Of a stretch of DNA of 41,391 bases, positions 25,203 to 40,257 are shown piece by piece (position 1 is the first letter of the stretch; each line of letters begins with the position of its first letter). The notes under the pieces were generated by a model. It saw only the letters and a list, made by a program, of their open reading frames with translations, had not been told where the DNA came from and did not search any database. The position numbers were made by a program, and so were the translations under genes. The stretch lies in the IMG/VR virus record IMGVR_UViG_3300028666_000026, positions 64,001 to 105,391 of that record, one strand, 5' to 3'. The DNA comes from a virus.

Positions 25203-26045
25203 ATGCTACCTGTATCACCCGCAGGTCGTCGTTACGGCGTCTACCGTGACAACCCGCTTCACCCGGCACGTACTTTGCTTCGATTGTCCGTGCCGGCTGA
25301 TATACAACTGCCGCCAAAGGCTTCAACTTCGCAGTGGATGGGCCGCATCCGGGACCAGGGCCAGGAAGGCTCCTGTACTGGACAGATGGGTTCTGCGCTG
25401 CGTGACGCTCTGTACCGCAAGTTGTACATTTTTGAAAAAGACAAGAGCGTAGTGCCTTCTGCGCTTTCCGTTTCAGCATCGTTCGTGTACAAGTGCAACT
25501 TGATTGCCGACGGCGATTTGGGCACGGATGCCGGCAGCTCCATACATCAGACATTCATCACTCTCAATCAGAAGGGCGCTTGTCTGGAGGCGCTGGAACC
25601 GTACAGCGACAATGACTATTCTGCGCCACCCAGTGCTGCACAGTACGCAGGTGGTTTGACGTATCGTGGCGGCTCGTATCATTTTCTGCCTGATCTGATC
25701 ACCATGAAGGCGTGCATTGCCAGCGGATATCCGCTAGGCTTTGGCATTTCTGTGTACTCGTCGTTCGAAGACAGCTGGTCAGTTGCTGGCCAGATGCCCA
25801 TGCCAGACGTCAAGACTGAGCAACTGCTGGGCGGTCATGCGCAGCCGGTGTTCGACTATGATGACGACCTGGTATTTGCGGACGGCTACAAGGGCGGGTT
25901 GCTTATTCAGAACTCTTGGGGCACAAACTGGGGCGTATCTGCGCCAGGGCGCACAGACGGAGGCTGCTACTGGATGCCGTATGCCTACGTGGAGGCTGGT
26001 CTGGCCAATGACGCATGGATGATGCATCTTGGCAGGCCGTGGTGA
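25203..26045 (+). CDS. Papain-family (C1A) cysteine peptidase
   Basis: Catalytic triad motifs QGQEGSC (Cys), GGHAQPVFDYDDD (His), NSWGTNWG...GGCYWMPYAYV (Asn). No long propeptide. Confidence 0.7.
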   Translation: MLPVSPAGRRYGVYRDNPLHPARTLLRLSVPADIQLPPKASTSQWMGRIRDQGQEGSCTGQMGSALRDALYRKLYIFEKDKSVVPSALSVSASFVYKCNLIADGDLGTDAGSSIHQTFITLNQKGACLEALEPYSDNDYSAPPSAAQYAGGLTYRGGSYHFLPDLITMKACIASGYPLGFGISVYSSFEDSWSVAGQMPMPDVKTEQLLGGHAQPVFDYDDDLVFADGYKGGLLIQNSWGTNWGVSAPGRTDGGCYWMPYAYVEAGLANDAWMMHLGRPW

Positions 26046-27689: not shown

Positions 27690-28016
27690 TTAATGCTCGC
27701 GCAGCCGGAGCTTCGCAGGTGGCGGTGGCGGCTCGCGCAGTGCAGGGCCGGGCAACTTCAGCACAGCGTCCAGCTTGTCCAGGAAGCTGCGCGCTTTGGC
27801 CAAGTCCTCCAGGCCATTCTTCTGCAACCACCGAATGACGTAGCGACATATCTGCGCTTCCAGGTATGGCATGCGAGCAAATAAATCCCAGTGTTGAATT
27901 TCTCCGCCGCAGTGCGGGCATTGACCTGCACAGTTGGAGTAGTGTGACCCGCCCACCTGTGCCACCACGGCTGTATTGGCTCCCACTACGCGCACTGATT
28001 TCTTTAAGATGGGCAT
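27690..28016 (-). CDS. DUF3310-like protein (GGSHY motif)
   Basis: GGAGAAG SD. Motifs GGSHY, WDLFA, YVIRWLQKNGLEDLAKARSFL are typical of phage DUF3310 proteins. Confidence 0.5.
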   Translation of the reverse strand: MPILKKSVRVVGANTAVVAQVGGSHYSNCAGQCPHCGGEIQHWDLFARMPYLEAQICRYVIRWLQKNGLEDLAKARSFLDKLDAVLKLPGPALREPPPPPAKLRLREH

Positions 28017-28597
28017 ACAGACTTCTCCATTCTGTTGATTAGTGGTAACAACATGTCGCTGTCAGCGATCATCGCACACTCTCGCATCAAGCGTATGGCT
28101 GCCAATTGTGTGCCCTTGCGCAGCACACAATAGTTGACGCTAAATTGAGGTTGCAAATATTCGCACAAAATACGCAGTATGCGCACGCCGTCTCTGTTGC
28201 CCAACATGGCCTGCCTGGCACAATGTACAGCAGCTGCAATTGTGTCGCTGATAGTCAAAATTTGCCTCTGCGCCTCGAGTAAAGGCGTGTTGCCGAATTG
28301 TAGTTTTTGAAACCTGAATCTTGCTTCGGCTTCGTTCAACTCAGTGAGTAACTCCTTGGACAGTACCTTCTTTACCGGAGCTGGCAAATCGCCGGACCAA
28401 TACTCACCAAGGTCGTGTCGCAGCGCTTCGCGCACGAGGTAGTAGCGCTCGCTTATTGTCAGCTCTTCAGTTTCTGCAAAGTAGTCTGACAACAAAGCCA
28501 CTACCGCGCTGTGGTGTCCGTCTGTTTCATCGCCTATTTGCGGCTCTGTGTGCCAGCGCCGTACGCCTACTGCGCGCATTAAACTATCAACATTCAT
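28004..28597 (-). CDS. HD-domain phosphohydrolase (YfbR-like dNMP/dNTP phosphohydrolase), 197 aa
   Basis: ATG at 28597 overlaps the upstream TGA (ATGA). Motifs RRWHT, DGHHSAV and RHDLGEYWSGD give an H...HD...D metal-binding pattern. Confidence 0.55.
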   Translation of the reverse strand: MNVDSLMRAVGVRRWHTEPQIGDETDGHHSAVVALLSDYFAETEELTISERYYLVREALRHDLGEYWSGDLPAPVKKVLSKELLTELNEAEARFRFQKLQFGNTPLLEAQRQILTISDTIAAAVHCARQAMLGNRDGVRILRILCEYLQPQFSVNYCVLRKGTQLAAIRLMRECAMIADSDMLLPLINRMEKSVCPS

Positions 28598-29655
28598 TTT
28601 GTTCTCCGACTCACCCACTCTTGGCACGCACGCTTCCAGTCCGGCGCATCGATACCGTCCAGACACACGCCCATACTATGCTTGTCTTTCCACTTGCGAT
28701 ATGTCCAGGCAAGAAATACAGGCACCACTACTGCGTGCATAAATGGCGTCTTTAAATCCGGCACGTTCAGCGCTATGGGTTCCTGCGCAGTGGAGCGTAT
28801 CACGGCGCGCGCCCAAGGCATAAATCGGCCCAGGTCAGCGTCGAACCCAGGCTCCAGGGCTGGGCCCAATTCTGGCAATGCACCCAGGGTGTCGCACTCG
28901 TGAATGATTTGGTCTATCTTTTCTGCGCCAAACACACCAGTGTACAAGTGGAAGTTATTGCTGAATTGTCTGTACGTGCCAATAGGCACGCCCACACGCA
29001 TAGCCATGTACTCCTGTAGAAAGCTGAAGTGCACAGCATTGGCACCGTAACAGCCCCATACAATATCATTGCTGCGGTTGCAGACAGTGATGTTGAGCGC
29101 GCCGCCGCGACAATCCACGTAGGCGTGCGTATTGCATGGCACGTCCAGGCCGCCATGTGTGGCCACGTAGAAGTCTGACGCATCCATGTCGCCTACTTTC
29201 GGCAGGACGCTCAGGCCCACTAACTCCGGGTCAGGCACTGCGTTCCACATCGCCAGTACGCAGCGCCGGGAAGCCGGATTCTTCTGCAGCTCCGCCACAA
29301 TGCCTTCCAACTGATCCCACCCAAAGAAACTGCGCCAGCGCCAGCCGTAGGCGCCCCAGCTGGTGATGCCGTCATCGCTGTATTCGCGCATTTGCTTGGC
29401 GAAAAACTCAACAAATTCCACGTCATTGGCACCGCTGAGCATCCACAGCGACTCCATCAGATGGAAGAAAGGGTTGGCATCACGTGTGGGACTGAACAGC
29501 ACGCGGCTGCGTGGGTTGGTGTACTCGGTGCACACAGGACCAGGTGCCACTAGCACTGGGCCGTTGCGACTTTGTTCTTCTACGCCTGCGTGGCGTAGAT
29601 ACTCCAGGCCATATTGCAACGCTTGGTTTACGTCGTCCGTTTGAAAGCTGTACAT
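28594..29655 (-). CDS. Thymidylate synthase-family enzyme (dUMP-binding; candidate dUMP hydroxymethylase or divergent ThyA), 353 aa with ~60-aa C-terminal extension
   Basis: AAGGAGAA SD at ATG 29655. Alignable to E. coli ThyA: ESLWMLSGANDV (ELLWFLQGDTN), YGWRWR, NPASRRCVLAMWN, PCN (PCH catalytic Cys), RSND (RSCD), Asn kept in GANAVHF (PFNIASY), NFHLY (DTHLY). Confidence 0.75.
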   Translation of the reverse strand: MYSFQTDDVNQALQYGLEYLRHAGVEEQSRNGPVLVAPGPVCTEYTNPRSRVLFSPTRDANPFFHLMESLWMLSGANDVEFVEFFAKQMREYSDDGITSWGAYGWRWRSFFGWDQLEGIVAELQKNPASRRCVLAMWNAVPDPELVGLSVLPKVGDMDASDFYVATHGGLDVPCNTHAYVDCRGGALNITVCNRSNDIVWGCYGANAVHFSFLQEYMAMRVGVPIGTYRQFSNNFHLYTGVFGAEKIDQIIHECDTLGALPELGPALEPGFDADLGRFMPWARAVIRSTAQEPIALNVPDLKTPFMHAVVVPVFLAWTYRKWKDKHSMGVCLDGIDAPDWKRACQEWVSRRTK

Positions 29656-29699
29656 CTGTTCTCCTTGCTTACAGGGGTTGAGAGTGCCCACCCTTAATT

Positions 29700-30584
29700 T
29701 TACCGCGCCGCGTAGGGCTCCGCGCTAGGGTTGAAGTTCTGGCGCGGTCTACCTTCTCCACCACGTGTGCGCATGTATTTGTCAAACTCGCACAAGCAAT
29801 TTTGTAGGTTCTGCGCATCCAGACTACGCAATTCCTTGGGCAACTTGGGCAACACGTGACCACGTAGTGCCAACAATGCGCTGTGCCACTCTTGTGGTTG
29901 CCACGGAGCAGTAAGGTCTTGCCCCATGGCGCGGTTAAGTCCACGTTGTGAGCCTGGACCTGGCGCTGCGAACGTTTCCCAATCCACAGCATTGACCAAC
30001 GGCGGCACCCACTTCACGTCTGCCACCACTTGTGCGGCAAGAAAGCTGCCCATGCCGTAGTGAGATTGCAGCCAAGTGTGAAACTCTTGTAGCGTACCTT
30101 TCAGTGGAGTTTGCTTCTTAGCAGCCCACAATGGATTGAGTACGTACTTGGCTAGGTAGTCAGCTTTGGTCTCTCCATCTTTTGCTTCTATGGCGCGAAT
30201 CATGTAGGCCGAAGTCCAGGTCTTTTCACCGCGCCCTTTACGCCTGTTCATTACGCTTGTGAACTTTTTCGGACTCCACTCTACATGTTTGCCGGCAAAT
30301 ACAGCGTTAGGCATCTCATGCAGAGATTCTGGTAAGTTCACCAATCTTGCTACTGTCATGGCAAACCAAACATTTTTGTCGTGTGTGTGCGGCAGCAGCC
30401 ACTCCTTGTGGATCCATTGCGTGACACGGTCGTCCTCACGCCTGACATTGCAGAATCTGTACCGACGCAATATAGGGTCTTTTGTCCACGGCGACGGTTG
30501 ACCAGCGCAGCGCTTGGTGTGAATGCTCCAGCGTTCTGATATGAACGCGACAAATTCCTTCAGCAGTGGAAACTGTGCACTCAC
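29700..30584 (-). CDS. Hypothetical protein in the DNA-modification operon (294 aa); candidate base-modification transferase (aGPT-pyrophosphorylase-like by context only)
   Basis: GTG start with GGAGG SD, GTGA overlap with the GNAT stop. Embedded between the ThyA-like and GNAT genes. No motif I can confidently assign. Confidence 0.3.
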   Translation of the reverse strand: MSAQFPLLKEFVAFISERWSIHTKRCAGQPSPWTKDPILRRYRFCNVRREDDRVTQWIHKEWLLPHTHDKNVWFAMTVARLVNLPESLHEMPNAVFAGKHVEWSPKKFTSVMNRRKGRGEKTWTSAYMIRAIEAKDGETKADYLAKYVLNPLWAAKKQTPLKGTLQEFHTWLQSHYGMGSFLAAQVVADVKWVPPLVNAVDWETFAAPGPGSQRGLNRAMGQDLTAPWQPQEWHSALLALRGHVLPKLPKELRSLDAQNLQNCLCEFDKYMRTRGGEGRPRQNFNPSAEPYAAR

Positions 30585-31060
30585 TTGGCGGCCTCCAACA
30601 TCAATCTCCAGTACGGCACCTTGGCGCTGTTCTGTCCTTCACCCACTACTTTGAAACCCAGCTTTTTGTAGAACCTCAATCCCTGCACATTCTCCTTCTC
30701 AGAGATCAGCTCGAGCAATCCATTTGGCGAAGTTTTCATTGCGTGTTGTAACAATGCACTGCCTATGCCCTTGCGCGGTACAGAAGTGCCCACATAGTAC
30801 ACAGAAGTGTGTGGACGTTCGTAGTAGCGCAAGAATTTGTCGTAGTAAATATCAGGCTTGTGCGGTTTGCGCACGCAGTGATGCACGCATAAGAAGCCAA
30901 CAATCTTGCCCTTCTGTCGCACCACTGAGACCCAACCGCGCGTGTAGTACTCCTCCACGTTGCCCATGCCAACGCCTGAGAACCCCTTGGTGAACTTGCT
31001 CAAGGCTGACAGCTTGAGTATTTCTTTGTGCTCTGACCACTTAGCTTTTTCGATTTTCAT
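30581..31060 (-). CDS. GNAT-family N-acetyltransferase (159 aa)
   Basis: ATGA overlap on both ends. Acetyl-CoA binding motif VGTSVPRKGIGSALLQHAM and motif B RFYKKLGFK. Confidence 0.6.
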   Translation of the reverse strand: MKIEKAKWSEHKEILKLSALSKFTKGFSGVGMGNVEEYYTRGWVSVVRQKGKIVGFLCVHHCVRKPHKPDIYYDKFLRYYERPHTSVYYVGTSVPRKGIGSALLQHAMKTSPNGLLELISEKENVQGLRFYKKLGFKVVGEGQNSAKVPYWRLMLEAAK

Positions 31061-31467
31061 GCTATCAACCAAGGATGTTCTTTGGAGCGTCTGAAGTCCC
31101 ACTTCTTACCGTCGTAGTAGCGCACAAATAAGTATCTGATGCGACCCATTAAGTGCGTATGCTCCAACTCTCTGCCAAATCTTTCCGCGTACCACTTGAA
31201 CATGTGTGGGTATTGTTCGCGAGCGAATAACATAGCAGGCTCGTACACTTCCCTGCCAAATAGTTTTGATCTGGCAGCTAGCAGCTTAGTGTCGCCTTGA
31301 AAGAATTTCATTTTCACATGATCATAAAATTCTTGGAACTCTGGTTTGAACTTATACAGCCAAGGGCCTTTGTTAGTTTGATGACTTGTGCCCTTCTTTC
31401 TACTGTGCATGTGCGTCACGCCAGTGTTGTGCAACACCGTTTGAGGTGCTCCGCCTGCCTTCGTCAT
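31057..31467 (-). CDS. Hypothetical protein (136 aa) in the modification operon
   Basis: ATG at 31467 overlaps the P-loop kinase stop (ATGA), and its own stop overlaps the GNAT start. Confidence 0.4.
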   Translation of the reverse strand: MTKAGGAPQTVLHNTGVTHMHSRKKGTSHQTNKGPWLYKFKPEFQEFYDHVKMKFFQGDTKLLAARSKLFGREVYEPAMLFAREQYPHMFKWYAERFGRELEHTHLMGRIRYLFVRYYDGKKWDFRRSKEHPWLIA

Positions 31468-32027
31468 GCTTTCTCCTTCCCAAGTAGTACCTTCATAAAA
31501 TCCCTCGTAGCCGTCTTGTGTTTCAGCGTCACGCATCGCAAGCCCAGATCTTCTAGCTTTGGCCTGCTTACTTCTACTGCATGATGTTTGACAGCTGTGT
31601 TCTTCGGATCCAGTGGGCGCGTGTCACCCTTGGCAGCGCGGCGCTGGCGAATACGGTATAGGCACACCTCGAGCGGCGTGTCCAGGAAGCACACTACGCA
31701 GCTCTTCTTACGCGCTGCCATGGCGCGGCCTATATTACCTACCGACGAGCTCACCAGCGCGCCCTCGAAGAGCACGTGGCCTCTGATGGCGTATGCTTCG
31801 ACGCGCGGCCAGATCAAGTCGTAGGGCTGTATCGCGTCGCAACCGCCACACTGTGTGGCGTAGGGTCCGACGACGAACAATGGTTTCGACAAGCCAGGTA
31901 TTGTCACCTTGTAGCCTTCTGGACGCTCAGGCCTCGGGCCTATCGGCGCGCTGACATACTTCTTCAAGATATCTTGCACAATGGTGCTCTTGCCAGAGCC
32001 ATGTGTGCCCCTCACATTCAAAATCAT
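31464..32027 (-). CDS. P-loop kinase (187 aa; candidate 5-hydroxymethyl-dU DNA kinase-like)
   Basis: Walker A GTHGSGKST 8 residues from the N-terminus. ATGA overlaps at both ends. Context with ThyA-like, HD and amidotransferase genes. Confidence 0.5.
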   Translation of the reverse strand: MILNVRGTHGSGKSTIVQDILKKYVSAPIGPRPERPEGYKVTIPGLSKPLFVVGPYATQCGGCDAIQPYDLIWPRVEAYAIRGHVLFEGALVSSSVGNIGRAMAARKKSCVVCFLDTPLEVCLYRIRQRRAAKGDTRPLDPKNTAVKHHAVEVSRPKLEDLGLRCVTLKHKTATRDFMKVLLGKEKA

Positions 32028-33886
32028 TTGATCAACCCTCTCTGCACAATAGGCCACAGCCCAATCATGCGCCCGGTATCGCGTAGTACATGTTCCTTAG
32101 ACTTGTCCACCTTCGTACGCGGTGGGGTCGCCAACTCACCCAGATATTCTGGAATGATGTTCTCGTGCCTGAATTGATACAGCACATTCCAATCAATACC
32201 AGACGTGATGGGCGCGTCTCGCATTTGGTTGATCTCGTTGGCCATGCGATCGAGATAGTACGGCAGGTATCTACCCTTAGTGGGCCTGAAGAACCCTTTG
32301 TAGGCGCACAGGCATGACTCCATGAACCAGTGATCCATGCCCAGCTTGGGGTACTCACGTTGGATTTCTGTGAGTAGCTTCTCACCTTCGCCCAGCAGCC
32401 AATCCCATTCTTCCGGCAGCAGCTCCGCTTCCTTAACCTGCTGCACATCAGTGGCGTGCAAGTTCAAGGCGTATGCCAGTCCTGTGCGTGAGCTTTGTGC
32501 TTCACGTAGGAACATAGTGTCAGCCTTGATGGGCATACCCATGCAGCGGTGCAAGGCTTCCGTGTAGATATACGTGGCGTAGCGACCAAAGTGCCAAAGT
32601 GTGCGCAACTTTGCCTCCACCACACGAAAGCGTTCTTCGTCTGTCTTGCCATGCTTGAGCAGCTGCGCGAAAAACTCCTCCTGCGCCGTTGGCGTCTGCC
32701 CGCCCACTGTGTCACGGTAGCTCTCGAACATTTCTACAAAGTGACCCTTCTCATATTTGCGATCAGTGTTGTAGGCTAGCGCACGCCAATTAGCTTTGTG
32801 CCATTTGTCCAGCCGCTTCAGATCGACTTTTTCAAACTCTGGAAATTCCTGCATGACGTAGAACACAGAACCTGGGTGGTAGAACGTGCCATACAAAAAG
32901 CAAGCCCAATACTCCTGAGATTTGGAAAGTTCGTAGCGTCTGAACAAGTAGTTCATCAGTGGGTAGTTGGGATCAATCTCCCAACTGGCAATTGCCGCAA
33001 CGCAATACTGCTTGAAGGACTGGCGCAGGCGTTTGCGATGATCCGCTTGTTTGTACTTTGTCGTGTCCAGCTCTAGCGGAGCTTTGGGCTTCTTGGCTGT
33101 AAGCATCAAGCGGTTCTGGATGCTGGGTCTGGGGAAGCGTACTTCCGAAGGCTGGGCGTACTTCAGCCGGGATAGCTCCTGAGCTCCCGAGGCGGTTAGG
33201 CCGTACTCGGTGTACGGTTCGGCTTCCCACAGCTCCAAACCTCCCGCGAGCGGCTCGCCCAGGCCCTCCAGCGCCCGTAGGACGATGTCTCGAGTAGAGG
33301 CGAAGCCGGTAAGGCTCAGGGCCTTGCTGCGGAACAGCCAGAGGGGCCGGATGTGGTCGCGTATGGCCGTGACCCGGCCTTGGTCGTCGAGGAAGCCACA
33401 GGCGAAGATAGGCGGTTGTACGGTGTATATCCGGTCGAACGCGCTCGAGAGGCTTCCTCGCGCTGCCAATACACGTCGGAGGATCACCTCGGTATCGTTT
33501 GCCGAGGTAGTTTTCACGTCGTAGGCGGCTTCGTACGTCTTCTGGTCTGCCATGGAAACTAGGCCGTTGTGAACCACGGCCAATTTGCTCGTCGCCACGG
33601 GCTGATTGTTTGCGTTGTCCTGCCAGTCACCACTGGTTGAGTACCGGGTGTGGCCTATCGCCTGCATCGGGGTACTGCGCCGCAGTGCATCCCAGGCAGC
33701 GCCGCTGACCAATTCCCAAGCGGGTATCGGTGCTTTAAGTGTGCGTACTTTACCGTTGGCAATCCAAGAAGCGCCGGAAGCGTGCATACCGCGCACTCGG
33801 CTTTCCTCCATCAGCTTGGTAAAGAACTCGAAGGCAACAGGCGCGTGCGCCCGTTTACCTACTACGTATCCAACAATGCCACACAT
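32024..33886 (-). CDS. Fusion protein: N-terminal class-II (Ntn) glutamine amidotransferase domain plus ~400-aa unrecognised C-terminal domain (620 aa)
   Basis: AAGGAGAA SD 4 nt before the ATG. N-terminus M-CGIVGY (Cys nucleophile). GlmS/AsnB-like motifs RYSTSGDWQDNANNQP and VVHNGLV...NDTEVIL. No PP-loop SGGxDS motif in the C-terminal part. Confidence 0.7.
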   Translation of the reverse strand: MCGIVGYVVGKRAHAPVAFEFFTKLMEESRVRGMHASGASWIANGKVRTLKAPIPAWELVSGAAWDALRRSTPMQAIGHTRYSTSGDWQDNANNQPVATSKLAVVHNGLVSMADQKTYEAAYDVKTTSANDTEVILRRVLAARGSLSSAFDRIYTVQPPIFACGFLDDQGRVTAIRDHIRPLWLFRSKALSLTGFASTRDIVLRALEGLGEPLAGGLELWEAEPYTEYGLTASGAQELSRLKYAQPSEVRFPRPSIQNRLMLTAKKPKAPLELDTTKYKQADHRKRLRQSFKQYCVAAIASWEIDPNYPLMNYLFRRYELSKSQEYWACFLYGTFYHPGSVFYVMQEFPEFEKVDLKRLDKWHKANWRALAYNTDRKYEKGHFVEMFESYRDTVGGQTPTAQEEFFAQLLKHGKTDEERFRVVEAKLRTLWHFGRYATYIYTEALHRCMGMPIKADTMFLREAQSSRTGLAYALNLHATDVQQVKEAELLPEEWDWLLGEGEKLLTEIQREYPKLGMDHWFMESCLCAYKGFFRPTKGRYLPYYLDRMANEINQMRDAPITSGIDWNVLYQFRHENIIPEYLGELATPPRTKVDKSKEHVLRDTGRMIGLWPIVQRGLIK

Positions 33887-33904
33887 GTATTCTCCTTGCA
33901 ACAA

Positions 33905-33935
33905 AACCGCCAGCCCGATACAGCGGCTGGCGGTT
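33905..33935 (-). terminator. Intrinsic terminator hairpin (perfect 11-bp stem AACCGCCAGCC/GGCTGGCGGTT, 9-nt loop) followed on the minus strand by UUUUGUUG
   Basis: Seen in sequence 30 nt downstream of the 658-aa gene stop and immediately upstream of the modification operon. Confidence 0.5.
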
Positions 33936-33964
33936 CTTTGATCGAATTTGTTGCCCTTGTGCTA

Positions 33965-35941
33965 CTAGCTCAACTTGATGTGCGCCGGTGCGTTGCCGTG
34001 CGGCTCGCTGGCCCACTTGATGAAGTACACCGCTTCGTACACGTCGCTCTTCGCCTTCTCCAGTGCCTTCTTGAAAGCGCCCACGGTGTCGGACTTGCGC
34101 AGGATAGCGAAGGAATTGAAAGCCTTGGTGCCTTCGCGGTACGGGTTGCCGTCGGTGCGACCCTCGACTGTTTTCGTAACCAGCTTGATGGTCATTTCGT
34201 CAGCGTAGGTACGGCGGGTGCTTTCGCGTGCGGCCTTCTTGGCCTTGGGTGCCTTCTCGGCTTTGGCAGACTTGGCGGCAGACTTCTTAGCAGGCGGCGC
34301 AAACTTCGGTGTCTTCGTAACGGTTTCGTTTGCCATGGGAATCAGCTCCTTGCAGTGTAGCACTGCGGTTAAGTGCCTTGCGGCAGCTGGCGTTACTGGT
34401 ACAGACGGAACCATTGGATTCAGTAACTGGTTTGCAGCCGCGATCAGGTCAACTTCGCCCGGCACAGGCCGCAGGTTTCTCAGAGTCTTTGTTGGAACAA
34501 CGCCTACAGCAACCCTGACACCATTATTATATACGCAAATTGCGCCCTGTGAGTTTTCACGCTCCAATTGCATCATTACAAGGCCGTTTTTCGGGTCTTG
34601 GAGGAGCCCGATATCGCCCGGTACTAGCTCCACCTCGGCGTCAGGGCGGGGAGCCGCGATAACCTCTGGAGTGACTGCGAGAGCGTATATCTCGCGCTTG
34701 GCAGCATCCTCCTGAGCCTTACGCTCCTTGTTGCTGAGCGGCTTGGCTACGCTCAGGACTTTACCCGGTACGGTGCGATCCAGCTTCGTGGACTGTAAAG
34801 CCTGCTCAAGTAGCTTGCGCTCCGCCCTGGTGTTGGCCGTCTTTATTTTGCGTATAGCTGCGCAGATAGTTTTGCAGCGATCAGCGAATGTCGTCGCGCG
34901 CGCCGCAGCAGACTTGCCTTCCGCACCCACAGCACTGTAGAAAGCCTGTGTCAAATTACCTATTGTGCATTCTTTGGCAAGTACACGATCACGGTTGAAC
35001 AAATTCTTCAGCAGTGCCATGCGCTTGCCGTAGTATTTGTCACCGCGTAGCAGATCCAGATTGTAGTTCTGCAGTGTCAACCCACCCAGCATTTCCACTG
35101 CGCGTACTACGTTAGCTGGCACGCCGTTGACAGCAGGCTTGGTCAGCACAGTCGCACGAGCGGAGGCTATGTCAGCCACTGTCATACCTTCTGTGCCCTC
35201 CAGTGCGAGTTCTGCGGCCTTCGCTGCTCTGGCCAATCTATGGGCCGCTTTATTCAGCGCTGTCTTGGACGTTTGCATGAGCGCGAGCTTGAGGTCTATC
35301 AGCTTGACGCCTGCCAGACGCGCGGCTTCCGGCGGTGGCGCTGGCGTTTCGGCAGGCAGCTTGATGGCCCAGTTTTCTTCAGTACCCGCAACATTGTGTG
35401 AGTACAGCGCGCCGCGTCCGTCCTTGTGTTGGTAGCCGTGCGCGTAGCCGAAGCCGGGTACTTCCTGCGTCATGACAAAGCTGAACTCCGCCTTGCGAAT
35501 GGCCTGTATCATGGGCCGATCTTTGGGTGGCTTGGGTAGCTCGACAACCTTAGCGGACGGCTTCTTCTTGCCAGCCTTCGCTGCGAGCGCGGTCAACTTC
35601 TCCGCAGCAGGCTCTTCCTCAGCAGGCTCTTCGACAATGCTGTGTAGCTCGTGGTTGGCGGGGTTGAAGCATACCGCGCACTTCGTGGACTTGCCGGCGC
35701 TCTTCGCGTAGGCATGCGGTCTGAGCTCTTCGTCGCCGGGCAGGTTTGTGGGTTCTTTGAATACGGCAGTCTTGACGGGCTGCGCTTCTGCTTCCCGCGC
35801 ATAATCCAGGATGGTCTTGATAACGCGCTGCGGCGCTGGCTGCTTTGCCAAAGTCGTTTCTCTGACGACGGCGGTAGCTGCGGTGGCTGCGGTCTTGGCG
35901 GTCTTGCTGCCGGTGGACTTCTTTGCTGTTCCTTGCTTCAT
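33965..35941 (-). CDS. Large Lys/Ala-rich protein (658 aa) with histone-H1-like AKK/AAK repeats at both termini; putative DNA-binding protein
   Basis: AAAGGAGCG SD. N-terminus MKQGTAKKSTGSKTAKTAATAATA. C-terminal AKKSAAKSAKAEKAPKAKKAARE. Central region unassigned. Confidence 0.5.
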   Translation of the reverse strand: MKQGTAKKSTGSKTAKTAATAATAVVRETTLAKQPAPQRVIKTILDYAREAEAQPVKTAVFKEPTNLPGDEELRPHAYAKSAGKSTKCAVCFNPANHELHSIVEEPAEEEPAAEKLTALAAKAGKKKPSAKVVELPKPPKDRPMIQAIRKAEFSFVMTQEVPGFGYAHGYQHKDGRGALYSHNVAGTEENWAIKLPAETPAPPPEAARLAGVKLIDLKLALMQTSKTALNKAAHRLARAAKAAELALEGTEGMTVADIASARATVLTKPAVNGVPANVVRAVEMLGGLTLQNYNLDLLRGDKYYGKRMALLKNLFNRDRVLAKECTIGNLTQAFYSAVGAEGKSAAARATTFADRCKTICAAIRKIKTANTRAERKLLEQALQSTKLDRTVPGKVLSVAKPLSNKERKAQEDAAKREIYALAVTPEVIAAPRPDAEVELVPGDIGLLQDPKNGLVMMQLERENSQGAICVYNNGVRVAVGVVPTKTLRNLRPVPGEVDLIAAANQLLNPMVPSVPVTPAAARHLTAVLHCKELIPMANETVTKTPKFAPPAKKSAAKSAKAEKAPKAKKAARESTRRTYADEMTIKLVTKTVEGRTDGNPYREGTKAFNSFAILRKSDTVGAFKKALEKAKSDVYEAVYFIKWASEPHGNAPAHIKLS

Positions 35942-36071: not shown

Positions 36072-36322
36072 AGCTGACCCAGCCTTTCTAGCCACGTGTC
36101 CGGCACAGCTGCCTCGCCCAGCTCGATCAGCTTCGCGCCGACAGCGTGAAGCACGGCACGCCTGTCGTCTTCGCTGAGTGTGGTAGTGTCCACTTCAGCT
36201 AGGTCGCCGTACCAAAACAGCTGGATGGGAGCTGTGTCATCGGTGGAGGCGAAACGGGCAACTAGCTCGTCGCCCGTCAGTAGCTTGATGAATACCTCGT
36301 GGTAATTGTTTGGGTCTGTCAC
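36068..36322 (-). CDS. Hypothetical acidic protein (84 aa), GTG start
   Basis: ORF-track ORF. Start abuts the upstream TAG. Confidence 0.4.
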   Translation of the reverse strand: MTDPNNYHEVFIKLLTGDELVARFASTDDTAPIQLFWYGDLAEVDTTTLSEDDRRAVLHAVGAKLIELGEAAVPDTWLERLGQL

Positions 36323-37320
36323 TAGCGTCCCAGCCCTTTCTGCGTGGACGCGCCAAGTTGTCCGTCCAGCCCGATGTCATTGCCTTTGGCCTGCCCGGCG
36401 CGGTACGCGGCTGACGCCTTGCGCTCGCCCTGCTTGTCTTGTTCGCGCCAGTAACGTTCACTGTAGCGCGCGCTGGCACGTTCGTCGCGACGGGCCTGCG
36501 CGGCCTCTTCTCGCTCACGCTTGGCCTTCTGCGCCGGTGACTCCAGCGCTCGGGCTGCCGCGAGCTTGGCAAGGCGCTCTGCCTCGCGTGCCGCCACAGC
36601 TTCTTCGCTCCAGTACACCGCGCTCTCAGCCTCGCTCTTTAGCTTCAACGCCCACTGGCCTGCGCCGTGGTAGTGGTCGTAATTGCCAGCTTCTTCTTTC
36701 TTCGCCAGGTCAGCCACTTGAATGGCCGTGCTGTAGGCAGCCTCGCCCTGCGTGGCGTAATCGGCCTTGCGCATGGCAGCTGCTTTCGCGTTGATGCGTT
36801 CCACTAGACGGTCAGCGCAACCTTCGCGCCACAACACTGCCTCACGGCACAGCCGTTCGCGGCCTGTCCAGGGCAGCAGACGCTCAATGGTTTCAAGCAG
36901 GTAATCCACCATTACCAAAACGGCTGTGGTGTTGACGACACGGCCTAGTACCTTGTGCCGCTTTACTTGACACAGACGATTCCAGCGCGTCTCCGTGGTG
37001 TCTTCCACCCAATAGCGGCAGAAGTTTGCTTCCGCCACGGTCCTGACAAGGTTGCGTTGCCACTGATACATGGCAGATTTACTGACACGAGCGTAGTCGC
37101 GTTTGGTTTCTGCTTCGCGCGCTGCGACGCCGCCAGCCACAACTTTGTCCTGCACCGTACCCAGGTCTAGGTTGTACTGCGCCAGAAGCTCCTGCGCCTT
37201 GCCCATTGCAGCAGCGGCCTCTGCTTCGTTGCCCTCGGGCCGTGCTGCCAGGTTGAGTAGCAGTTGAATTTTGCGTACTAAGGAATCGCTGATCTCGAGT
37301 GTGGGCGTGTTCGTAGTCAT
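36322..37320 (-). CDS. DUF2786-domain protein with Glu/Arg-rich coiled-coil C-terminus (332 aa)
   Basis: ATG 37320 overlaps the upstream TAA. VRKIQLLLNLAARPEGNEAEAAAAMGKAQELLAQYNL is the DUF2786 signature. Confidence 0.5.
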   Translation of the reverse strand: MTTNTPTLEISDSLVRKIQLLLNLAARPEGNEAEAAAAMGKAQELLAQYNLDLGTVQDKVVAGGVAAREAETKRDYARVSKSAMYQWQRNLVRTVAEANFCRYWVEDTTETRWNRLCQVKRHKVLGRVVNTTAVLVMVDYLLETIERLLPWTGRERLCREAVLWREGCADRLVERINAKAAAMRKADYATQGEAAYSTAIQVADLAKKEEAGNYDHYHGAGQWALKLKSEAESAVYWSEEAVAAREAERLAKLAAARALESPAQKAKREREEAAQARRDERASARYSERYWREQDKQGERKASAAYRAGQAKGNDIGLDGQLGASTQKGLGR

Positions 37321-37643
37321 TAGAACACCTCCAGTGTCAGCCCTGCAGCTTTGGCCATTCTGCGTGCTAATGAAGTGTTCACCCAAACTGGCGTACCGCT
37401 CAACTCACCACGTTTGTGGACAAACGCTGGCGCTGACTTGCTGAATATGTCTCCAGGCTTGCCAAAGTACTGGAACAACGGACCGAAACCAGAACCTTCC
37501 ATCTTGATCACGAACCCGGTGGGTAGCTTCGCTGTTTTGTTAAAAGGCACCCGCTCACCGTCTGTCGTAAGCGTTGCTTCTTCTACAAACTTTTTGATGA
37601 CCTTCAGATGGCTAGGGCTGAAATGTTGATTGTTAGCAGTCAT
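37320..37643 (-). CDS. Hypothetical protein (107 aa)
   Basis: ATG overlaps the upstream TAA (TAATG). Confidence 0.45.
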   Translation of the reverse strand: MTANNQHFSPSHLKVIKKFVEEATLTTDGERVPFNKTAKLPTGFVIKMEGSGFGPLFQYFGKPGDIFSKSAPAFVHKRGELSGTPVWVNTSLARRMAKAAGLTLEVF

Positions 37644-37957
37644 TAGCGCACCGCCTTTTTATTCTGATGCTGGATGGCCAATTTGTTGGAGAAGTCGAAC
37701 TCTTCAGCGCCGCCCAAGAACACGATGCGGTTGTCTGGGTACTGCGCTTGCAGAGCCTCCATTTGCAGATCACGAAGACCGTATGCGCTGGTTTCGGTGA
37801 GAAACAACCCGACGCCGTCGACGTAAACTACGCCACGAAAAGTTCTCGTGCCCGGCTTGTACAGGCGGCCAGGATCACTGATACAGGCGAAGCGGTCAGC
37901 GACCCGCAGTTTTGGTGTAACCTGGCTAACATGTTGATTCTTTGTGGCTTGTGTCAT
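37643..37957 (-). CDS. Hypothetical protein (104 aa; alternative start 37990)
   Basis: AAAGGACGG SD precedes ATG 37957. The ATG at 37990 has no SD. Confidence 0.4.
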   Translation of the reverse strand: MTQATKNQHVSQVTPKLRVADRFACISDPGRLYKPGTRTFRGVVYVDGVGLFLTETSAYGLRDLQMEALQAQYPDNRIVFLGGAEEFDFSNKLAIQHQNKKAVR

Positions 37958-38034
37958 TTTAGGGCCGTCCTTTCTAACGACCAAAACCATTATACAACGT
38001 CAAACTGGGCTGGAAAACATTTATTTTGAGCGCT

Positions 38035-38277
38035 TTAGCCCTCCACGTTCTTCGCGATGTCAGCGTATTTCGCCGTTCCGCTCGCGGAGGCTTTGATGGA
38101 CAGGTCCAACTTGCGTAGTATCGGCGCGTAGGCTTCGCATTGATCGGCCAGCTTGGCTTTGTCGTCACCATCTAGACACGTGGAAATTACTGGGTGTACG
38201 GCGTACTGCGCCAGAACTCGCATACGCAGTTCAACGGCCAGCTTCAACAGCCGCGCTTCGTCTGATGTGAGCTTCAC
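38035..38277 (-). CDS. Hypothetical small protein (80 aa), GTG start
   Basis: GTGA overlap with the upstream gene stop. Confidence 0.4.
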   Translation of the reverse strand: MKLTSDEARLLKLAVELRMRVLAQYAVHPVISTCLDGDDKAKLADQCEAYAPILRKLDLSIKASASGTAKYADIAKNVEG

Positions 38278-38621
38278 TTCACTACCTCCACTGGAACGCC
38301 AGCCTTGCGCGCACGTCGCACCATGTCAGCGGTGCCCTTGGACTTTTCTATGTCTGAGTGAAAAGCTATGACTTTGTCTGGCTGTCCGAATTTCAACATC
38401 CACCCATTGCGAATGGGGCCTGCGGCTTTGTGGTAGAAGTGCCAGTTGGCTTTGAACGTGGCGTGAGGAATGCCGCGCATGTCGGCCAGAACACCGGATA
38501 TAAAGTCAGCTCCCGGCGCGCCGCCCTCAATCACAAGATCATTTGGGCCCAACTTCTTCATGCGCCGTTCTATCTTCTGCTGATCAGTCCAGTCACGCCC
38601 ACCACAAAACAAGTACCTCAT
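38274..38621 (-). CDS. DUF2493/YspA-like SLOG-domain protein (115 aa)
   Basis: AAGGAGG SD. MRYLFCGGRDWTD, VIEGGAPGADF and AAGPIRNGWML motifs. Confidence 0.5.
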   Translation of the reverse strand: MRYLFCGGRDWTDQQKIERRMKKLGPNDLVIEGGAPGADFISGVLADMRGIPHATFKANWHFYHKAAGPIRNGWMLKFGQPDKVIAFHSDIEKSKGTADMVRRARKAGVPVEVVK

Positions 38622-38625
38622 GCTA

Positions 38626-39555
38626 CTACCTCCTTGCCACGTACACTCTTGGTGTGGGCGGCTTAAACGGTTTGTCTGCCGGACCTTTTATGTAAGGATC
38701 TATCAGTATAAGTTTTACAGTGTTATTACTACGATATGGTTGCAAACGGAAGTGGGCTCCCACCAACCACTGACAGTGAAACTCACGTTTACTTTCATCG
38801 TCAGTACCAGAAGGTGTGGTATTCAACCGTCTTAGTAAAATGGTATGCGGTTCATTTGTAAATCTAAAACCATTCTGTCGTTTGATTCTACTTAGCTTTT
38901 CGCCACGCACGGCTGTTGGCTCCATGCCAGATATACGCTGCTGTATTAAGTAGAAGAAAGAATACAACAATCGCTGTCCAGCGTAGAACGTGTCAGTTTG
39001 TTGTTTATCACTGGTTATACAATCAGTCAACGAGCGTTCATCTTCTAAAACTCTCAGTGTAAATTCTTCAATCATCCACAGACCATTAGACATGCGATGT
39101 GGCGGCGTAGCTAGACACGCCATAAACTGGCCGCTATGCAGCTTGACCAGCTTACCATCAGGGTTTTTAGCCACTGAATCCTCGCCTATAGATGCCCACA
39201 ATAACAAGCCTATCGGATGGGCAGACACATCTAAAATAGGCTCTTCAAAGGCCACCCAGCCCACACTAGTGGGCACCAGAGACGCGTCGAACTTGGTTTC
39301 TACAGGCATCGTAGTGGCCAAAGACTTTAATGCCATACCAAAGGATTTCTCAACCAAAAAGTGTTCTCCATGTTGAATTGCTACGTTCAACAAGTTTAAA
39401 AAATTTGTTTCACATCCCGCCTGTTCAGGCCCATACTCAGCAAGCGCCTGCTGGTGAAAAGTGTCAAGCATATCTGGGTTGTTTAGACCTGTGTTGCGCA
39501 AGTAGCGATATACCTCTTCTCGCATGTTCAACGACCGCTCCATAACAGTATTCAT
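38626..39555 (-). CDS. Hypothetical protein (309 aa), lower-GC gene
   Basis: ATG at 39555 overlaps the upstream TGA (ATGA). Confidence 0.45.
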   Translation of the reverse strand: MNTVMERSLNMREEVYRYLRNTGLNNPDMLDTFHQQALAEYGPEQAGCETNFLNLLNVAIQHGEHFLVEKSFGMALKSLATTMPVETKFDASLVPTSVGWVAFEEPILDVSAHPIGLLLWASIGEDSVAKNPDGKLVKLHSGQFMACLATPPHRMSNGLWMIEEFTLRVLEDERSLTDCITSDKQQTDTFYAGQRLLYSFFYLIQQRISGMEPTAVRGEKLSRIKRQNGFRFTNEPHTILLRRLNTTPSGTDDESKREFHCQWLVGAHFRLQPYRSNNTVKLILIDPYIKGPADKPFKPPTPRVYVARR

Positions 39556-40052
39556 GCCGCCCTCCCCGCACACTCAGGACCAAGACCAGCGGCCACGGAC
39601 TCCGGAACCGTCAGCTTGCGTCCACACCGACCACAGCGTCCCTCGTGCCACACTTCCAGTGTCTTAGGCATCGTACCGCCTGCCTGAAGTTTGGCGAAGA
39701 ACCAAGAGAATGCTTTATACGACGGCGCTTCTTCACGCACGCGACTCTTAGTAGTGCAGTGGAACCCGCGTGCATCAATCAGACCCATGTATGCGTAGTC
39801 ATCTTCGTTGGACGGTCCGCGCAGTAGGCTGACGAAGTACACCTTCTGCTGTCCAGTGCCCATCAACAGGTTATTCACGTTTTTGGCAGCAGCCATGCGA
39901 TACGTGAATCGTTCGCCAGTCTTCTTCGAACGCAGTGTAAAGGTGGCATTGCCAGCAAACACGAACCGACCCGTTACATCCCACGTAGTCAGACGGCCTT
40001 GTAGTGCAGAAGTCTTAGCAGAATTGAGTAGCTCAACCATAGATGAACTCAT
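39552..40052 (-). CDS. Hypothetical protein with C-terminal zinc ribbon (CGRCGRKLTVPESVAAGLGPEC; DUF6011-like), 166 aa
   Basis: AAAGGAGAG SD 5 nt before ATG 40052. The ORF-track GTG at 40076 is less likely. Confidence 0.45.
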   Translation of the reverse strand: MSSSMVELLNSAKTSALQGRLTTWDVTGRFVFAGNATFTLRSKKTGERFTYRMAAAKNVNNLLMGTGQQKVYFVSLLRGPSNEDDYAYMGLIDARGFHCTTKSRVREEAPSYKAFSWFFAKLQAGGTMPKTLEVWHEGRCGRCGRKLTVPESVAAGLGPECAGRAA

Positions 40053-40257
40053 GGCACTCTCCTTTCTGGTAGGCACGCACTACACGTGTCAGTGGACCGA
40101 ATGAATCACGCTCGCCCATGTGGAAGGTGACGCGCTCGTAGCCAGCCAACTCCAATGCAGGTTTGGCAATATGGTCTTCCCACTTCCAATACGACTGTCC
40201 ACAGAACTCTACGTGGTCGGCCAGTTTGCTGTCTATTACATCAAACAAATCTCTCAC
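40033..40257 (-). CDS. Hypothetical small protein (74 aa), GTG start
   Basis: AGGAGG SD 6 nt before the GTG, which overlaps the upstream TGA. Confidence 0.4.
   Translation of the reverse strand: MRDLFDVIDSKLADHVEFCGQSYWKWEDHIAKPALELAGYERVTFHMGERDSFGPLTRVVRAYQKGECHEFIYG

Follow-up and report, generated by a model that had tools for sequence, protein, structure and literature searches.

The stretch of viral DNA analyzed here, hereafter the window, comprises 41,391 nucleotides (nt) of IMG/VR record IMGVR_UViG_3300028666_000026 (positions 64,001 to 105,391), and the gene under study within it encodes a protein in which a glutamine amidotransferase (GATase) is fused to an amino acid:DNA transferase (AADT). 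The phage is a myovirus, with tail sheath and baseplate proteins encoded in the window. The fusion gene occupies positions 32024..33886 of the minus strand and encodes 620 amino acids (aa) plus a stop codon when counted from its ATG, a gene model supported by the list of open reading frames (ORFs), by Pfam matches to GATase_6 and ADDT (PF18724) and by an AlphaFold2 (AF2) model. The longest mechanical frame begins from a TTG at 33904 (32024..33904, 626 aa). A Shine-Dalgarno sequence, AAGGAG (33892..33897, minus strand), can be read directly from the sequence, with 5 nt between it and the ATG at 33886, and, because of this placement, the MCGIVGY beginning at that ATG is the true N-terminus of the fusion protein. 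The AF2 model has a pLDDT of 94.1 and a pTM of 0.93, the latter of which points to the two domains forming a single rigid body.

The N-terminal domain (residues 1–245; 33152..33886, minus strand) is predicted to be an intact class-II glutaminase of the N-terminal nucleophile (Ntn) type, as the first-pass annotation had recognized from its M-CGIVGY start. It matches Pfam GATase_6, and a family profile of the domain searched against the PDB retrieved PurF and GlmS (E 1.7e-12). In a BLASTP alignment with a GlmS, the segments MCGIVGY, IGHTRYSTSG, VVHNG, and NDTEV line up with the corresponding GlmS motifs. A Cys directly follows the initiator Met, and this Cys2 is nearly invariant across the family. 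Conservation was assessed in 38 homologs (40–67% identity), among which Arg81, Asn107–Gly108, and Asp131 are invariant; these align with the equivalents of GlmS Arg73, Asn98–Gly99, and Asp123. The domain also has the alpha-beta-beta-alpha fold of Ntn enzymes. A reading of the glutaminase as degenerate was rejected, since its catalytic residues are invariant. Small-molecule amidotransferases (AsnB, GlmS, PurF, GltS) align with the fusion protein over its first ~200 residues only. The first-pass annotation had also stated that the PP-loop of asparagine synthetases and a sugar-isomerase domain were lacking, and Pfam and PDB profile searches of the fusion protein indeed found no PP-loop, SIS, or PRTase domain, nor was an FMN acceptor domain of the GltS type among its Pfam matches. 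That annotation had named a confident match to a known small-molecule synthetase as the result that would count against its proposal; such a match was looked for and not obtained.

The remainder of the protein had been described as a domain of unknown function; it is in fact a member of Pfam family PF18724 (ADDT, formerly aGPT-Pplase clade 2), for which a structure has been solved. The AADT family was reportedly first predicted by Iyer et al. in 2013. The domain (AADT/aGPT-Pplase2, residues ~286–620; 32027..33031, minus strand) matches the Pfam model over residues 309–530 at 76.6 bits (cut-off 26.2; E 3e-21), the same model scoring the characterized gp46 of phage PaMx11 at 97.1 bits. A profile of fusion residues 275–620, built from the 38 homologs, was compared by local hhalign with an AADT reference profile of eight sequences (PaMx11 gp46, M6 gp51, PhiW-14 gp109, the ViI-like Det7_175, and four others), which gave a probability of 99.0% (E 9e-18); this alignment was used instead of a forced global hhalign against gp46 alone, which returned a meaningless 2.7%. 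The fold likewise corresponds to that of the solved AADT structure 8Z2M. By these three independent tests (Pfam, profile–profile, and fold) the C-terminal domain is an AADT, with only 13% identity to PaMx11 gp46.

In gp46, Cys247 has been proposed to add to C6, whilst the structure shows Glu243 and Thr244 holding a metal on O4 and a phosphate pocket that includes Asp24, Tyr47, Tyr51, and Glu92, with glycine bound by Lys150, Asp24, and Trp146 and its amino group held by Lys150 and Asp24 (PMC11472151). In the profile alignment these map to C527 (Cys247), E523 (Glu243), D305 (Asp24), Y332 (Tyr47), Y336 (Tyr51), and D375 (Glu92) of the fusion protein, each invariant among the 38 homologs, and to S524 (Thr244), which is Ser or Thr in all 38. 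The equivalents of gp46 R93 and K250 are also invariant or nearly so. At the glycine site, Lys150 corresponds to I440 (I, A, Y, or V in all 38) and Trp146 to Y436 (Tyr or His). A Lys occupies the former position in seven of the eight reference AADTs, four of the eight having been experimentally characterized, and Det7_175 has an Asn; none of the best 150 relatives drawn from 1.84 billion representative proteins has a Lys there. From these positions, the machinery which handles base and phosphate appears to be retained and the site for the amino-acid nucleophile to be altered. Given this replacement of the Lys150/Trp146 site, the label "amino acid" transferase probably does not suit the fusion protein, despite its AADT fold and chemistry. 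Both domains look active, for the (near-)invariance of the glutaminase residues and of the residues handling base and phosphate suggests that each is under selection as an enzyme.

The genes downstream of the fusion gene are linked by ATGA stop/start overlaps and form an operon with one-to-one correspondence to the cluster of PaMx11 (gp48–gp53) that makes 5-acetylaminomethyl-deoxyuridine (5-AcNmdU), at 28–39% identity and in nearly the same order. In BLASTP against PaMx11, the counterparts of gp48–gp52 gave identities of 32–39% (E 1e-7 to 5e-79). All of these genes lie on the minus strand. The TGA of the fusion gene overlaps the ATG of a P-loop kinase for 5-hydroxymethyl-deoxyuridine (5-hmdU) in DNA (31464..32027; 39% identical to gp49, E 2.5e-28), which matches Pfam HMUDK_HMUD1 weakly, as does gp49 itself. 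Beyond it are a 136-aa ORF (31057..31467) with ATGA overlaps at both ends, with the kinase and with the following gene; a GNAT acetyltransferase (30581..31060; 35% identical to gp48, E 1.7e-25); a gp50-like HMUDK_hel protein (29700..30584; Pfam PF18723, E 1.7e-44; 32% identical to gp50); a thymidylate-synthase homolog (28594..29691; Pfam Thymidylat_synt; phrog_5131, E 5.6e-105; 39% identical to gp51), predicted to be a dUMP hydroxymethylase; a gp52-like HD/YfbR-like nucleotidase (28004..28666; Pfam YfbR-like, E 6e-10; 34% identical to gp52); and a gp53-like DUF3310 protein (27690..28016; 28% identical to gp53), whose gene ends the syntenic block. The earlier placement of the fusion gene within a modification operon was thus borne out by the adjoining 5-hmdU kinase, HMUDK_hel, and thymidylate-synthase homolog. 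When searched against 50,697 phage records, the GNAT gave 20 matches, 17 of them in the PaMx11 group; in those of the group that were listed, the match falls on the gp48 acetyltransferase gene. As its matches among phage genomes are almost only to this group, the GNAT is predicted to be a specific ortholog of gp48, a 5-aminomethyl-deoxyuridine (5-NmdU) N-acetyltransferase, rather than an instance of generic GNAT similarity. The 136-aa ORF had no match in Pfam or PHROG and no homolog in 18 related loci; other relatives have unrelated small ORFs in its slot, as on the P0007 contig, with ORFs of 73 and 106 aa, and in L019, with one of 136 aa.

In PaMx11, gp49 phosphorylates 5-hmdU in DNA and gp46 then attaches glycine, after which gp47, an FAD enzyme, cleaves the glycine adduct to leave 5-NmdU, and gp48 acetylates the primary amine of this base but does not accept N-alpha-GlyT (PMC8989533). 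No gp47 homolog or other FAD oxidoreductase was found in the window, where the ORFs scanned gave no DAO or FAD match in Pfam, and no gp47 homolog was found in the 18 related loci, within ≤10 kb of the related genes. The place of gp46 and gp47 is taken by the GATase–AADT fusion.

The first-pass annotation had suggested an acceptor domain using glutamine-derived ammonia on activated 5-hmdU in DNA. With the C-terminal domain assigned to a family that displaces phosphate from 5-phosphomethyl-deoxyuridine (5-PmdU) in DNA (PMC8989533, PMC11472151), this is now the best-supported reading. It is likely that, in the fusion protein, ammonia derived from glutamine attacks the activated base and gives 5-NmdU directly, which is then acetylated. 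The phage would replicate with 5-hmdU provided by means of the thymidylate-synthase homolog and the HD nucleotidase, and the P-loop kinase together with the HMUDK_hel protein would convert this base in DNA to 5-PmdU. The AADT domain would flip the base, Cys527 would add to C6, and the phosphate would leave to give an exocyclic methylene at C5, as in the scheme proposed for gp46 (PMC11472151). The Ntn domain, with Cys1 exposed after removal of the Met, would hydrolyze L-glutamine, and the ammonia, staying within the protein, would reach the AADT site and add to the methylene, giving 5-NmdU, glutamate, and phosphate. The gp48-type GNAT would finally acetylate the primary amine to 5-AcNmdU. One fused enzyme would in this way substitute for the two-enzyme route of PaMx11, glycine transferase gp46 and FAD lyase gp47. 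The pathway is based on domain identities, residue conservation, synteny and the pattern of fused and split genes, with the enzymatic steps inferred by homology. The methylene intermediate of AADTs is known to take other nucleophiles in vitro, namely beta-mercaptoethanol and the hydride of borohydride (PMC8989533).

A protein identical to the fusion (P0001) is found on a 105-kb metagenomic contig, and the architecture is common to ~60 metagenomic clusters at 35–65% identity. Searches of the 50,697 phage records with the fusion gene returned nothing by megablast and, by tblastn, only C-terminal matches at ~25% identity (ViI-like and other phages), none of them full-length. The fused form is therefore currently known only from metagenomes and is absent from this deposited collection. 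HMUDK_hel, the kinase, and the thymidylate-synthase homolog accompany the fusion in related loci, most of which have the 5-hmdU DNA kinase and the dUMP hydroxymethylase homolog near the fusion gene, as in the window. In at least six more distant lineages (L012/13, L014/15, L016/17, L030, L032, and L034), the GATase (about 234–299 aa) and the AADT (about 330–355 aa) are encoded by two neighboring genes, the stop codon of one overlapping the start codon of the next, the order in L034 being HMUDK_hel, HMUD2 kinase, GATase, AADT, thymidylate-synthase homolog, and HD. Such a fused/split (Rosetta-stone) pattern is the classic signature of two parts of one enzyme.

In temperate-phage contexts (L002, 2–4461; the P0056 contig; L032, 1576–5228), the GATase–AADT genes adjoin Tet_JBP dioxygenases, one of which is 555 aa long and gives a faint match to an acetyltransferase. 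These neighbors suggest that 5-hydroxymethyluracil (5-hmU) is made there in situ from thymine and not by way of a dUMP hydroxymethylase. The occurrence of a Tet_JBP gene beside the fusion in a temperate phage agrees with the reported co-occurrence of ParB-dependent T-dioxygenases with GATases, kinases, and AADTs (2026, PMC13229309). On the P0007 contig (GCA_015689235.1), which carries a fusion relative of 64% identity, the GNAT and HMUDK_hel genes are separated by a Methyltransf_21 gene, which hints at methylation as an additional tailoring step in that lineage.

Class-II GATases of cultured phages (PaP3/LUZ24-like, and tf) were considered as members of the same system and were rejected, as they have no AADT. 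PaP3 was the only PaP3/LUZ24-like locus inspected, and phage tf was included by tblastn. In PaP3 (L029, NC_004466.2, 30686–39090), a different class-II GATase fusion lies amid genes for a COOH-NH2 ligase, an amidoligase, a RimK-like protein, and a gamma-glutamyl-cyclotransferase. Clusters of this type, of amidoligase, ATP-grasp, and gamma-glutamyl-cyclotransferase genes, are unrelated to AADT. The fecal phage records H81 and H90 contain the GATase only.

On the whole, we are inclined to regard this family as the first case of a glutamine amidotransferase with a base in polymeric DNA as its acceptor. It would form 5-NmdU with a single enzyme, either fused or of two subunits, that would act after a dUMP hydroxymethylase in some phages and after a Tet/JBP thymine dioxygenase in others. 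A number of observations weigh against ammonia transfer to DNA. About half of the related fusion genes have no gp48-like GNAT nearby; acetylation is consequently lineage-specific and the argument drawn from the GNAT is confined to the clade of the window. Two standalone AADT relatives (L031, L033) have no adjoining GATase, so that the link between the domains is strong and not universal, and since both also lack a Lys150 equivalent, the loss of this residue is not exclusive to GATase-linked members. These standalone AADTs may use another amine donor or free ammonium; a GNAT and a DUF2284 protein are encoded near them, adjacent in L031 (3875–5924) and ~4 kb downstream in L033. The residue map itself depends on a profile alignment at 13% identity. 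The window represents 41 kb of a 105-kb genome, elsewhere in which a lyase is possible. Lastly, the amidotransferases or "glutaminotransferase" domains of such clusters are named in the open-access literature without a function (PMC8989533, PMC13229309), in which no characterization of GATase–AADT function was found.

The AADTs characterized to date all use amino acids or polyamines (PMC8989533, PMC13458397), and the fused domain might likewise transfer an amino acid or some other amine, as those of M6, PaMx11, ViI, and PhiW-14 do, with the GATase amidating or trimming the appended group or having a regulatory, glutamine-sensing role. The close AADT relatives without an adjacent GATase would fit this explanation, as would the unexplained 136-aa ORF within the operon. 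We nevertheless consider it unlikely. Amidation of a carboxylate requires an ATP-dependent activating domain, which neither the Pfam nor the PDB profile search found; the amino-acid-binding Lys150 is gone; no PLP, radical-SAM, or FAD tailoring enzymes were found in the window or its relatives; a gp48-type GNAT requires a primary amine; and the invariant glutaminase residues speak against a purely regulatory domain. It is quite improbable that the same net reaction proceeds without free ammonia, the amide nitrogen of glutamine giving a gamma-glutamyl-aminomethyl-dU adduct that the Ntn domain would cleave in the manner of EgtC to 5-NmdU and glutamate. An amide nitrogen is a poor nucleophile, the DNA-bound adduct would have to shuttle between two active sites, and the N-terminal domain is closest in sequence to the ammonia-channeling GlmS and PurF.

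Glutamate itself could also be the group transferred, the glutaminase supplying it and the AADT attaching it to give alpha-glutamylthymidine as in Bacillus phage SP10. As glutamate is plentiful in bacterial cells, a dedicated glutaminase would be pointless for this purpose; the Lys for the amine of the amino acid is lost, and a gp48-type GNAT is inactive on secondary amines such as N-alpha-GlyT. This makes attachment of glutamate very improbable in the fusion protein, even though alpha-glutamylthymidine is a known hypermodification that arises through 5-HMUDK-type pathways (PMC8989533). Class-II GATases of phages are often labeled GlmS-like in PHROG and other annotations, which would fit an amidotransferase that works on small molecules in the metabolism of nucleotides or sugars and has no connection with DNA. 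The small-molecule synthetase reading was rejected, there being no such acceptor module in the fusion protein, and we give it hardly any credence. Direct transfer of glutamine-derived ammonia to the activated base is the reading which we prefer.

The fusion protein differs in several respects from PaMx11 gp46 (PUGT, the 5-PmdU glycinyltransferase; PDB 8Z2M/8Z2N) and the PF18724 AADTs M6 gp51, ViI gp247, and PhiW-14 gp109. Its AADT is ~50 residues longer and is fused to a glutaminase (or encoded beside one in other lineages), its family has a hydrophobic residue in place of Lys150 and Tyr or His in place of Trp146, and its predicted nucleophile is ammonia and not an amino acid. With the 5-AcNmdU pathway of PaMx11, a siphovirus of 60 kb whereas the phage of the window is a myovirus of ~105 kb, the operon shares the kinase and homologs of gp50, gp48, the thymidylate-synthase homolog, HD, and gp53, as well as 5-NmdU as the predicted intermediate and 5-AcNmdU as the predicted end product. 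The FAD lyase, however, is lacking in the window, where the fusion stands in place of the glycine transferase and one step would replace two.

GlmS, PurF, AsnB, and GltS have in common with the fusion protein an N-terminal Cys nucleophile, a glutamine site formed by Arg, Asn-Gly, and Asp, the Ntn fold, and the order of domains, with the glutaminase at the N-terminus and the acceptor domain after it. Their acceptors are small molecules, whereas the acceptor domain of the fusion is an all-helical DNA base-flipping transferase, which would aminate an electrophile carried by a DNA polymer. Phages are also said to encode Gat-QueC, a glutamine amidotransferase fused to QueC for 7-deazaguanine DNA modification; this reportedly likewise joins a phage GATase to a DNA-modification enzyme, in another pathway and with another acceptor domain, and is said to act on a precursor rather than on DNA. 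A chemical parallel is found in the tRNA enzymes MnmEG and MnmC (cmnm5U, nm5U), which also lead to an aminomethyl-uracil product. MnmEG has an ammonium branch that gives aminomethyl-uracil directly, and the proposed reaction of the fusion would relate to the PaMx11 route as this branch does to the glycine branch. These proteins are unrelated to the fusion, their substrate is RNA, and they use a folate-derived methylene rather than a phosphorylated hydroxymethyl group. The glycine and FAD-dependent cleavage route of PaMx11 has itself been likened to MnmEG/MnmC (PMC8989533).

A terminator-like hairpin (33903..33937, minus strand), consisting of a 13-bp stem and then UUUUGUUG, lies between the fusion gene and the 658-aa gene directly upstream of it, with its U-run after the stem and immediately upstream of the Shine-Dalgarno sequence of the fusion gene. 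Its RNA fold has an energy of −24.9 kcal/mol (z −4.5), and none of 200 shuffled sequences folded equally well; it was overlooked by a consensus scan because its loop is 9 nt. A separate transcription unit may begin at the hairpin, or the hairpin may be an attenuator. The upstream gene (33965–35941, minus strand) encodes an Ala/Lys-rich protein with no match in Pfam and PHROG searches. L018 has a homolog of this protein in the corresponding place (E 2e-105), and a large unannotated gene of 495 aa occupies its place, by position only, in the P0007 contig.

Further upstream, the early region (36322–40076, minus strand) includes genes for DUF2786/DUF7168, DUF6011, and YAcAr (SLOG-related) proteins, with DUF6011 and DUF2786 recurring at similar places in related contigs. 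On the plus strand, a 280-aa ORF (25203–26045), with the tail genes on its upstream side and a PG_binding_3 protein encoded on its downstream side, has a weak match to Peptidase_C1 of the papain family (E 2e-4; 21.9 bits vs. a cut-off of 20.7) and may be part of the lysis module.

The fusion protein had been put forward at first as new enzymology. Its fold, its transferase chemistry, and the likely product are known, 5-NmdU and 5-AcNmdU having already been described for PaMx11; what is new in the proposal is the ammonia donor supplied from glutamine, the coupling to a GATase, and the one-enzyme shortcut. The prediction is directly testable with reagents already in use for PaMx11 and M6. If it is correct, 5-hmU in DNA could be given a primary amine by a single enzyme, which would be useful for the labeling or sequencing of this base. 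It would also provide a function for the amidotransferases listed without explanation in thymidine-hypermodification clusters by Lee et al. (2021) and by the T-dioxygenase study of 2026, and would extend the enzymology of ammonia transfer to a DNA substrate. Two different routes would then lead phages to one protective base, 5-NmdU or 5-AcNmdU.

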